A stretch of DNA of 22,757 bases from a virus. Taxonomy: Duplodnaviria > Heunggongvirae > Uroviricota > Caudoviricetes. The stretch's first letter is position 1. Every line of letters begins with the position of its first letter. The DNA lies in IMG/VR virus record IMGVR_UViG_2526164666_000014, positions 1 to 22,757 of that record; one strand, written 5' to 3'. The notes below the pieces were generated by a model. The model was not told where the DNA came from and did no database searches. It saw only the letters and a list, made by a program, of their open reading frames with translations. Positions 4,545 through 5,371 of this stretch are shown in pieces. The translations under genes were made by a program, and so were the position numbers.

Positions 4545-4578
4545 TGAGGCAAAGAAAACCCGGCGCTGAGGCCGGGTT
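4545..4578 (-). terminator. rho-independent terminator ending the cI-linked leftward operon
   Basis: 8-bp GC-rich stem (AACCCGGC/GCCGGGTT), 6-nt loop, followed on the minus strand by TTTTCTTTG, about 20 nt after the 42-aa ORF stop. Confidence 0.5.
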
Positions 4579-4597
4579 CTGTCATCTAACTTAAGTA

Positions 4598-4726
4598 TCA
4601 AGCCGCTTTTTGTGAATGATTGATGTGAGCTTCAAAGTCGCGGCGTAGATTTTGAACGCGCTCTACACATCCGCGCATTTCAGCCAAAAGCTTACTAACG
4701 GCAGTATAGTCAAACGCTTTAGTCAT
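4598..4726 (-). CDS. hypothetical 42-aa protein, second gene of immunity-region insert
   Basis: ORF MTKAFDYTAVSKLLAEMRGCVERVQNLRRDFEAHINHSQKAA, preceded by a G-rich/A-rich SD-like stretch; same frame as the upstream 120-aa ORF, separated by one TAA and five codons. Confidence 0.45.
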   Translation of the reverse strand: MTKAFDYTAVSKLLAEMRGCVERVQNLRRDFEAHINHSQKAA

Positions 4727-4741
4727 TTTTTTTCCCCTCGT

Positions 4742-5104
4742 TTAAATGTAAGGCTCAACATCAAGGGCTGCTATTGCTGCGCACAATGCGTCAGGATCGT
4801 CAGCATCGATGGCTTGAGCCAGGTCATTAGCCAGTATAAGTAACTTATCGATGACAGCGATTTCGCTGGTCTTATCTACACGAAAGTATGGGAGCAGAGC
4901 ATTACATACGTCTCTGAATGTCCGTAATTCTGCGACAACGTTCGAAAAGGTAGGATCTTTCTTACGAAGATCCACCAATGGCGCTACTTTAGCTGTTTTC
5001 AGCATTGCACTAATCTCGCCAATCATTGTTCCATGCAGACGATTAAATTCATCAACAGCTCGGTCATGCAAGCTCTTGTTGATTGGCAATACGTTTTGGG
5101 TCAC
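4742..5104 (-). CDS. hypothetical 120-aa protein, first gene of immunity-region insert (rexAB-equivalent position)
   Basis: GTG start with AAGGAG SD 8 nt upstream; helical, acidic C-terminus; no family recognised; separated from cI by a 267-bp AT-rich spacer. Confidence 0.6.
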   Translation of the reverse strand: MTQNVLPINKSLHDRAVDEFNRLHGTMIGEISAMLKTAKVAPLVDLRKKDPTFSNVVAELRTFRDVCNALLPYFRVDKTSEIAVIDKLLILANDLAQAIDADDPDALCAAIAALDVEPYI

Positions 5105-5371
5105 TAACTATACTCCTTATATAGGTGTTCGCCAACAGATTTTCAATATGACTTGGGCGATTTCTGAACAATAAGCACGATTTAGCAATGATTAATTGAT
5201 GTTAAGCACAAATATCTCTACATCGTGCATTTTTAACATTTATACACATAAAATCTAATAAATGGATATAAACCTTATGATGATTTTTCTCAATCGAATT
5301 GAATAATGATCTCTATCACATCACCCAAACGTCTCTTCAGGCCACTGGTTACCAGCTATGTGACGATGAAG

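Follow-up and report, generated by a model that had tools for sequence, protein, structure and literature searches.

What does a lambdoid prophage encode between its repressor gene and its early leftward operon when this interval, which phage lambda fills with rexAB, holds two small genes that resemble nothing characterized? This question is raised by the IMG/VR virus record IMGVR_UViG_2526164666_000014 (Duplodnaviria; Heunggongvirae; Uroviricota; Caudoviricetes), of which we analyzed one stretch of 22,757 nucleotides (positions 1 to 22,757), hereafter referred to as the window. The window contains the 933W-type immunity region of a lambdoid prophage, where the minus strand encodes the repressor cI (5372-6079), followed by a spacer of 267 bp (5105-5371), a 120-codon open reading frame (ORF; 4742-5104), hereafter the large gene, a 42-codon ORF (4598-4726), hereafter the small gene, and an intrinsic terminator (4551-4578). 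A preliminary description of this DNA had given the positions and character of cI, the AT-rich spacer and the two ORFs, all of them correctly. We find that the cassette formed by the gene pair and its upstream DNA is a mobile, autonomous two-gene moron in the rexAB-equivalent slot; the kind of feature, that is, accessory cargo of an immunity operon, is already known, and the gene family is new, lying outside curated families, defense models and informative structures.

The extent of the cassette follows from a BLAST comparison with phage 933W. The window and 933W are 99.2% identical over 3001-4576 and 97.8% identical over 5323-6783, without any match between these stretches. Because 933W homology stops on both sides and none is found between, the cargo cassette, as delimited by this comparison, is the 746 bp at 4577-5322. 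At the allelic position, 933W carries four other genes, encoding a DUF3024 protein, a RuvC-like protein, Stk and a 54-aa ORF. The preliminary description had suggested surveying the cargo between cI and pL in other phages and had assigned the pair to the rexAB slot; with rexAB in lambda and the DUF3024/RuvC-like/stk/54-aa ORF array in 933W, the assignment was borne out, and precisely so, as the cassette fills the exact cI-to-t_imm interval used by both. The 267-bp spacer is accordingly composite, with 49 nt of 933W-type sequence next to cI and 218 bp belonging to the cassette.

Two sequences flanking the slot are common to lambda, 933W and many other lambdoid phages, with unrelated cargo between them. 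The left one, CAGTGGCCTGAAGAGACGTTTGGGT at 5347-5323 on the minus strand, is a 25-nt relic of a lambda-type cI 3' end (encoding QWPEETFG), which lies past the stop codon of cI proper, in the 49-nt stretch of 933W type, and matches the last codons of lambda cI (QWPEETFG*) at 27 of 28 positions. The same relic is present in 933W (L001, 6367-6391), likewise after a true 933W-type cI stop, and homology between the window and 933W ends exactly at its edge, at 5323. In cassette-bearing loci of Citrobacter, Hafnia, Pantoea, Proteus and Providencia, the QWPEETFG motif is the real C-terminus of the repressor, and in Citrobacter and Proteus prophages the relic directly follows the stops of unrelated repressors, as it does in L015, L025 and L027; a short version of it is found in L005. 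The right linker is the terminator at 4551-4578 on the minus strand, with the structure AACCCGGC-CTCAGC-GCCGGGTT followed by TTCTTT (-16.5 kcal/mol, z = -3.3), where 933W homology begins at 4576. A minus-strand hairpin before the N leader had been described previously, and it is present at 4578-4551, but its attribution to the cassette as an "own terminator" was wrong in the window: the sequence, CCCGGCCTCAGCGCCGGGTTTTCTTTGCCTCACG, is identical to tM of 933W and to t_imm of lambda just past rexB and, by this identity, is part of the slot, not of the cassette. Between Hafnia and E. coli, the stem of the terminator shows a compensatory change, CCCCGC/GCGGGG. In lambda (L024), the two linkers are located at 1927-1954 and 455-527, around rexAB.

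Because heteroimmune phages share both flanks, we infer that these sequences serve as linkers at which homologous recombination swaps the cassettes. The cI-N interval, which houses rexAB and bstA, has been described as a hotspot of mosaicism (PMC8585504), and an anti-phage small RNA (sRNA), svsR, has been reported at the cI 3' end of the lambdoid prophage NC-SV in a paper the text of which does not include the svsR sequence (PMC12803456, 2026); the corresponding part of the window is 5300-5400. For lambdoid prophages that keep both linkers, searches anchored on the cI 3' relic and t_imm could yield an inventory of the cargo at this hotspot.

Judged by conservation and substitution patterns, both ORFs are real genes under purifying selection. 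Among the copies from Escherichia coli, Citrobacter, Hafnia and Pantoea, in comparisons with unsaturated synonymous divergence (dS), the ratio of nonsynonymous to synonymous divergence (dN/dS) is 0.06-0.16 for the large gene and 0.07-0.19 for the small gene, with a value of 0.44 for the latter in the least diverged pair; the dN/dS range of 0.06-0.19, together with conservation, rules out spurious ORFs. All loci examined have, 13-51 nt past the large gene, a gene of one family that encodes a protein of 41-44 aa, and this pairing persists down to 24-40% identity in four Xenorhabdus species, a metagenome-assembled genome labelled Saprospiraceae and a Methylococcales symbiont. Thus, the proposal that the ORFs form a genuine two-gene unit holds, on the strength of purifying selection and of pairing in all related loci examined. 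Each gene has its own Shine-Dalgarno (SD) sequence, AAGGAG (5118-5113) 8 nt upstream of the GTG start of the large gene and GAGGGG (4739-4734) upstream of the ATG start of the small gene. The shared frame of the two ORFs noted in the preliminary description is true in the window (5104 - 4726 = 378 = 3 x 126, with a TAA and 15 nt between them) but meaningless, as it is gone in relatives. Stop read-through or a split gene was accordingly rejected, given the SD sequence of the small ORF and the variable gap of 13-51 nt, which in the loci checked for it, such as Hafnia (13 nt) and L004 (22 nt), disrupts the common frame.

The pair is known from about 40 loci, from Escherichia to Xenorhabdus, the carrier genera besides E. 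coli being Citrobacter, Hafnia, Pantoea, Proteus, Providencia and Xenorhabdus. Among 5426 complete E. coli genomes, 89 (1.6%) contain the cassette, in 101 places and up to three per genome, with all copies at least 99.7% identical; the carriers include Shiga toxin-producing E. coli (STEC) of serogroups O26, O103 and O111, strain H19 and poultry isolates. Among approximately 50,000 deposited phage genomes, the pair was found only in Pm34, an isolated, viable temperate phage of Proteus, where gp26 and gp27 constitute the pair and the repressor gp25 immediately precedes them. Most loci have the pair directly behind a repressor, and the 16 repressor-adjacent loci encompass 12 types of repressor N-terminal domains, with downstream arms that also vary (933W-like, P22-like with sieB, and others). 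When the slot is shared with other cargo, such as the DUF3024 gene in Providencia L029 or a 124-aa ORF in L033, the pair comes last, with at least 220 bp of its own upstream sequence retained; paralogy of the pair with the 124-aa ORF of L033 was ruled out (hhalign probability 0.2%). Away from repressors, the pair follows tail tip and tail fiber genes at a prophage end beside metA in Xenorhabdus L018, adjoins tail-fiber assembly genes in L009 and L032, and resides in apparently non-phage DNA in L020 and L022.

In related loci, the small gene is typically followed by a terminator distinct from t_imm (10 of the 11 loci checked), as it is in each of the contexts away from repressors, and in L004, L009, L012, L017-L020 and L022 this is a different hairpin with a T-run, 10-45 nt past the gene; in Pm34, no terminator was seen within 130 nt of the small gene. 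A moron, as conceived by Hendrix and Juhala, consists of a promoter, one or more genes and a terminator inserted between conserved genes. The cassette is present in some and absent from other phages of near-identical backbone, has a promoter-like block, ends in nearly all loci with a terminator just past the genes, and recurs at two sites that are classic for morons, the tail-fiber end and the cI-N interval. We assign it to the morons because it combines the promoter-like block, the genes, the terminator, the presence/absence polymorphism and the two accessory hotspots, with the limitation that "moron" names an architecture, not a function, and that the promoter of the cassette is predicted.

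The DNA upstream of the large gene belongs to this mobile unit. The spacer has a GC content of 33%, compared with 47% for the whole window, and its cassette part, the AT-rich 218 bp at 5105-5322 (minus strand), appears to be regulatory DNA that travels with the gene pair, behind different repressors as well as behind other cargo genes. A promoter scan combined with conservation points to a promoter-like block at 5107-5146, in which two overlapping sigma-70-like promoters are predicted on the minus strand: P1, with TTGAAA (5146-5141) and TATATA (5123-5118) separated by 17 nt, and P2, found by the scan, with TTGGCG (5135-5130) and TATAGT (5112-5107), also separated by 17 nt. The block encloses the SD sequence AAGGAG, so that the promoter-like elements bracket an invariant GGAG and, in most clades, the GTG start. 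When the E. coli group is compared with the Xenorhabdus group, identity is 54-67% in the 46 nt immediately preceding the start codon and about 27% farther upstream, and the P1 and P2 hexamers are kept at about the same spacing, the Xenorhabdus counterpart of P2 being TTGTCA and TATAAT separated by 16 nt. Because the scan detected no terminator-like site on the minus strand between the cI stop and the cassette, co-transcription with cI by read-through from pM is plausible as well. The large gene may be translated mainly from such read-through transcripts, and the small gene from these and from the transcripts of the cassette's own predicted promoters.

That the 267-bp spacer might encode an sRNA, a riboswitch or another structured RNA was also considered and rejected, given that there was no Rfam match and that RNAalifold returned -5 kcal/mol with an unfavorable covariation term. 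Separately, the upstream region contains one perfect DnaA-box consensus (TGTGTATAA; complementary strand, TTATNCACA) and, at a distance of 38 bp, a box with one mismatch, the two being located at 5240-5248 and 5202-5210. Proteus and Providencia loci (L025/L027 and L029/L030) contain two perfect high-affinity boxes (TTATCCACA) in inverted orientation, at about -200/-210 and -71/-81 from the start of the large gene. At least one perfect box occurs in about 2% of composition-matched shuffles, and the boxes are not conserved in Pantoea or Xenorhabdus.

The product of the large gene (WP_000193240.1, a hypothetical protein in the RefSeq/PGAP annotation) is acidic, with an isoelectric point (pI) of 4.9 in the window and of 4.3-5.2 across the 12 members analyzed, all of which are acidic. 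It is predicted to form an all-alpha, generic four-helix bundle (AlphaFold2 predicted local distance difference test (pLDDT) 81.8, predicted template modeling score 0.72), with the conserved motifs GEISxMLxxAKLxP...L...NPSF and a near-invariant C-terminus, AAIAALD-[EVD]-[KEQ]-P-Y-[IV]. A profile search across 1.84 billion representative proteins recovered relatives in only 36 clusters, a listing that also contains a few short fragments and one unrelated match of 1574 aa; the complete clusters are approximately 104-182 aa long, mostly 110-130 aa, without an informative extra domain. The protein matches phrog_13858 (5e-73), a PHROG of unknown function. A HEPN-like RNase was ruled out, as the family shows neither a conserved Rx4-6H motif nor a conserved His, Asp, Glu or Cys cluster.

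The product of the small gene (WP_000158654.1, likewise hypothetical) matches phrog_12503 (2e-26), also a PHROG of unknown function, and is predicted to be a single long helix spanning residues 7-41 (AlphaFold2 pLDDT 90.6). In 11 of the 12 members it carries a net positive charge (+1 to +6), the conserved core reads YD[YF]..[VI]..LL.EME.C[VA].R[VI], and the C-terminus follows the pattern [KQ]-x-[AIV]-A in all 12, ending with AA in 10 of them, including the window copy (...QKAA). We take this C-terminus to resemble the ClpX C-motif degrons LAA and RRKKAI, which provides a lead. ClpX recognizes C-terminal degron classes typified by ssrA and MuA (PMC12723719). The small protein was checked for fusion partners and none emerged, all relatives being standalone proteins of 30-44 aa.

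As stated in the preliminary description, neither protein is recognizable: Pfam and NCBIfam yielded no match for either, PADLOC was empty, and the fold comparisons, carried out with Foldseek as that description had suggested, gave no informative match. Specifically, Foldseek found nothing significant for the large protein in PDB or BFVD, and a PDB sequence profile search with it was empty. No transmembrane segment was detected in either protein (maximum 19-residue Kyte-Doolittle scores of 1.22 and 0.34), and the two accessions are not mentioned in the papers searched.

The cI-pL interval is the best-expressed accessory position of lambdoid prophages and has yielded RexAB, Stk and BstA; the cassette adds a further allele of this slot, encoding strongly conserved proteins that match nothing characterized. 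Lambda RexAB excludes superinfecting phages, T4 rII among them, and RexB is a polytopic membrane protein. In lambda, rexB has an internal promoter, to which the conserved promoter-like block of the cassette can be compared. With rexA-rexB, the cassette shares the slot, the two bounding sequences and the arrangement of two co-directional genes downstream of cI, but there is no sequence or fold relationship, and compared with RexA (279 aa) and RexB (144 aa, a reported ion channel) (PMC8585504), the window products, of 120 and 42 aa, are both soluble and have no PADLOC match. The 933W cargo lies between the same flanks, in a backbone otherwise 98-99% identical, and is an allelic alternative to the cassette, but consists of entirely different genes, whereas the window cassette encodes no enzyme domain. 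The Stk protein of that cargo is a eukaryotic-like kinase said to exclude HK97. A DUF3024 gene and the pair coexist in one slot in Providencia L029. BstA of the Salmonella prophage BTP1 is encoded downstream of the repressor, is expressed at a high level in lysogens and has its own terminator, and bstA is found behind many repressor types, sometimes outside prophages (PMC8585504). The pair resembles it as an accessory unit behind the repressor with the same distribution pattern; in contrast, BstA is one large protein, has a DNA-binding domain and comes with an embedded anti-BstA DNA element, and it shows no homology to the pair. Type II toxin-antitoxin (TA) modules are similar to the pair in consisting of two small, adjacent, co-directional and co-conserved genes, one with an acidic and the other with a mostly basic product, in the degron-like C-terminus of the small protein, and in being autonomous, mobile and sometimes present in multiple copies. 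Unlike such modules, the pair has no match to toxin or antitoxin families, no DNA-binding antitoxin fold and no evident toxic activity.

The reading that we prefer, at somewhat less than an even chance, is that the pair protects the lysogen from superinfecting phages, as a binding-based, lysogen-expressed switch of the TA-like or abortive-infection kind. We favor it because of the track record of the slot, because the architecture is mobile and autonomous, and because the small partner is obligate and has a degron-like end. Expression in the lysogen, which we infer from the position of the pair, would involve both read-through from the maintenance promoter of cI and the pair's own promoter. 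The two products, one an acidic four-helix bundle and the other a single-helix peptide, mostly basic, would form a complex, which would act by binding another protein, not by catalysis, because no catalytic or membrane feature is conserved, and the 42-aa peptide, the conserved ...K-A-A end of which is similar to C-terminal degrons of ClpX, would be labile and control the large protein. The fuller version of this proposal, which we put forward only tentatively and as the less probable one, is a new non-enzymatic, two-protein anti-phage system, in which a four-helix-bundle sensor/effector is held in check by a protease-labile 42-aa helix, and which would spread among lambdoid and other prophages of Enterobacterales via two dedicated cargo slots, by recombination at the conserved linkers. 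If a role in defense or addiction is correct, the pair would be an unusually small, binding-only system of 162 codons that is easy to dissect.

Several observations weigh against protection of the lysogen. The proposed function is drawn solely from position and architecture; PADLOC-DB v2.0 returned zero families for both proteins at E-values up to 10, and a defense-island neighborhood is not demonstrated, the surroundings of the pair in L020 (an HNH nuclease and unknown genes) being uninformative. Conserved catalytic-looking residues were not found in the large-protein family, which also has no membrane segment, so that it is not apparent how killing would occur. A recognizable DNA-binding fold, as in typical type II antitoxins, is missing from the small protein, and the likeness of this protein to a degron is limited to two or three residues. 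Moreover, transcripts from P1 and P2 would start at or after the SD sequence or the GTG of the large gene, a point for which the model offers no explanation.

Of the other explanations, the most probable one, although we consider it unlikely, is lysogenic conversion: the pair would bind a host protein (a regulator, protease adaptor or stress factor) and alter host physiology or fitness, without any role in exclusion. The absence of matches to known defense models fits this explanation, as do the small, non-enzymatic, helical character of both products, the enrichment in STEC O26/O103/O111 and poultry isolates, and the presence of the module in tail-fiber-end moron slots, where lambda-like phages carry host-directed genes. 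The cI-N slot, however, is best known for exclusion genes; it is more often self-controlled modules that have such an obligate two-gene make-up with one tiny member, and neither product has homology to known regulators.

Two further alternatives are improbable. In lambda, a role in the bistable switch has been reported for RexA, and the pair, as the last cargo of the repressor operon in most loci, behind at least 12 repressor types, could comparably modulate the lysis-lysogeny switch or the induction of its own prophage. However, the pair also occurs far from repressors, at tail-fiber ends and in non-phage DNA, and the unrelated repressors and N/pL arms beside it make a specific switch partner unlikely. 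The pair could instead be a plain TA addiction module that stabilizes the prophage or a DNA island, without anti-phage activity, an option to which we likewise assign a small chance: the two small, tightly linked genes, their products' complementary charge, the conserved degron-like end of the small protein and the autonomous distribution with up to three copies per genome are as would be expected, but similarity to toxin or antitoxin families, a DNA-binding domain and a plausible toxic activity are all missing. Counter-defense cargo, which would inhibit a host defense system by mimicry or binding, is very improbable: small, acidic, non-enzymatic helical proteins are typical of anti-defense proteins, and the large protein, with a pI of 4.3-5.2 throughout the family, is of this kind, but the pair sits in a repressor operon expressed in the lysogen and not with the early lytic genes, requires a small partner that is conserved, and occurs in non-phage chromosomal sites as well.

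In the remainder of the immunity region of the window, the repressor is a 933W-type protein of 235 aa with helix-turn-helix and Peptidase_S24 domains (PF01381; PF00717, 4.5e-16), and the cI region is 97.8% identical to that of 933W. Downstream of the slot, on the minus strand, a pL-like promoter detected by the promoter scan (4366-4338) marks the start of the early leftward operon. The operators OL1 (4342-4357) and OL2 (4364-4379) and the nutL site (4254-4320), also on the minus strand, were positioned by transfer from the GQ499361 annotation, and the OL/pL stretch (4338-4379) is 100% identical to 933W. The N gene (3705-4088) follows downstream of OL, pL and nutL, so that cI, the spacer, both ORFs and the terminator are all upstream of these elements. 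Past the stop (3705) of the 127-aa 933W-type N protein, and in another frame, the C-terminal motif of lambda N (ITCSGRQKIKGKSIPLI) is encoded as MTCVGRQKMKLGSKPLI at 3655-3708 on the minus strand (11 of 17 residues identical, E = 3e-5), which looks like a relic of a frameshift or of a mosaic join in N.

The replication region differs from that of lambda. A gene on the plus strand (7908-9788) encodes a 626-aa primase-helicase-like protein in place of lambda O/P, with a homologous arrangement of 625 aa (Toprim_2 and AAA_25) in L014, and this replacement indicates that mosaicism with respect to 933W extends to the part of the window right of cII. In the same region, a 21-bp tandem repeat (7273-7378; 4.9 copies, 96% match) lies in a plus-strand ORF (7240-7800), where it encodes GGAGADR repeats at the N-terminus of a 186-aa product. 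Rfam searches identified isrK and the C4 antisense RNA with its a1/b1 targets at 12666-12864 on the plus strand, scoring at the gathering threshold; this antisense immunity element of the P1/P7 type, here within a lambdoid prophage, probably controls an antirepressor. The other Rfam matches were the sRNA STnc100 at 17427-17599 on the plus strand (118 bits) and the lambda cIII thermoregulator element at 2541-2598 on the minus strand (78 bits).

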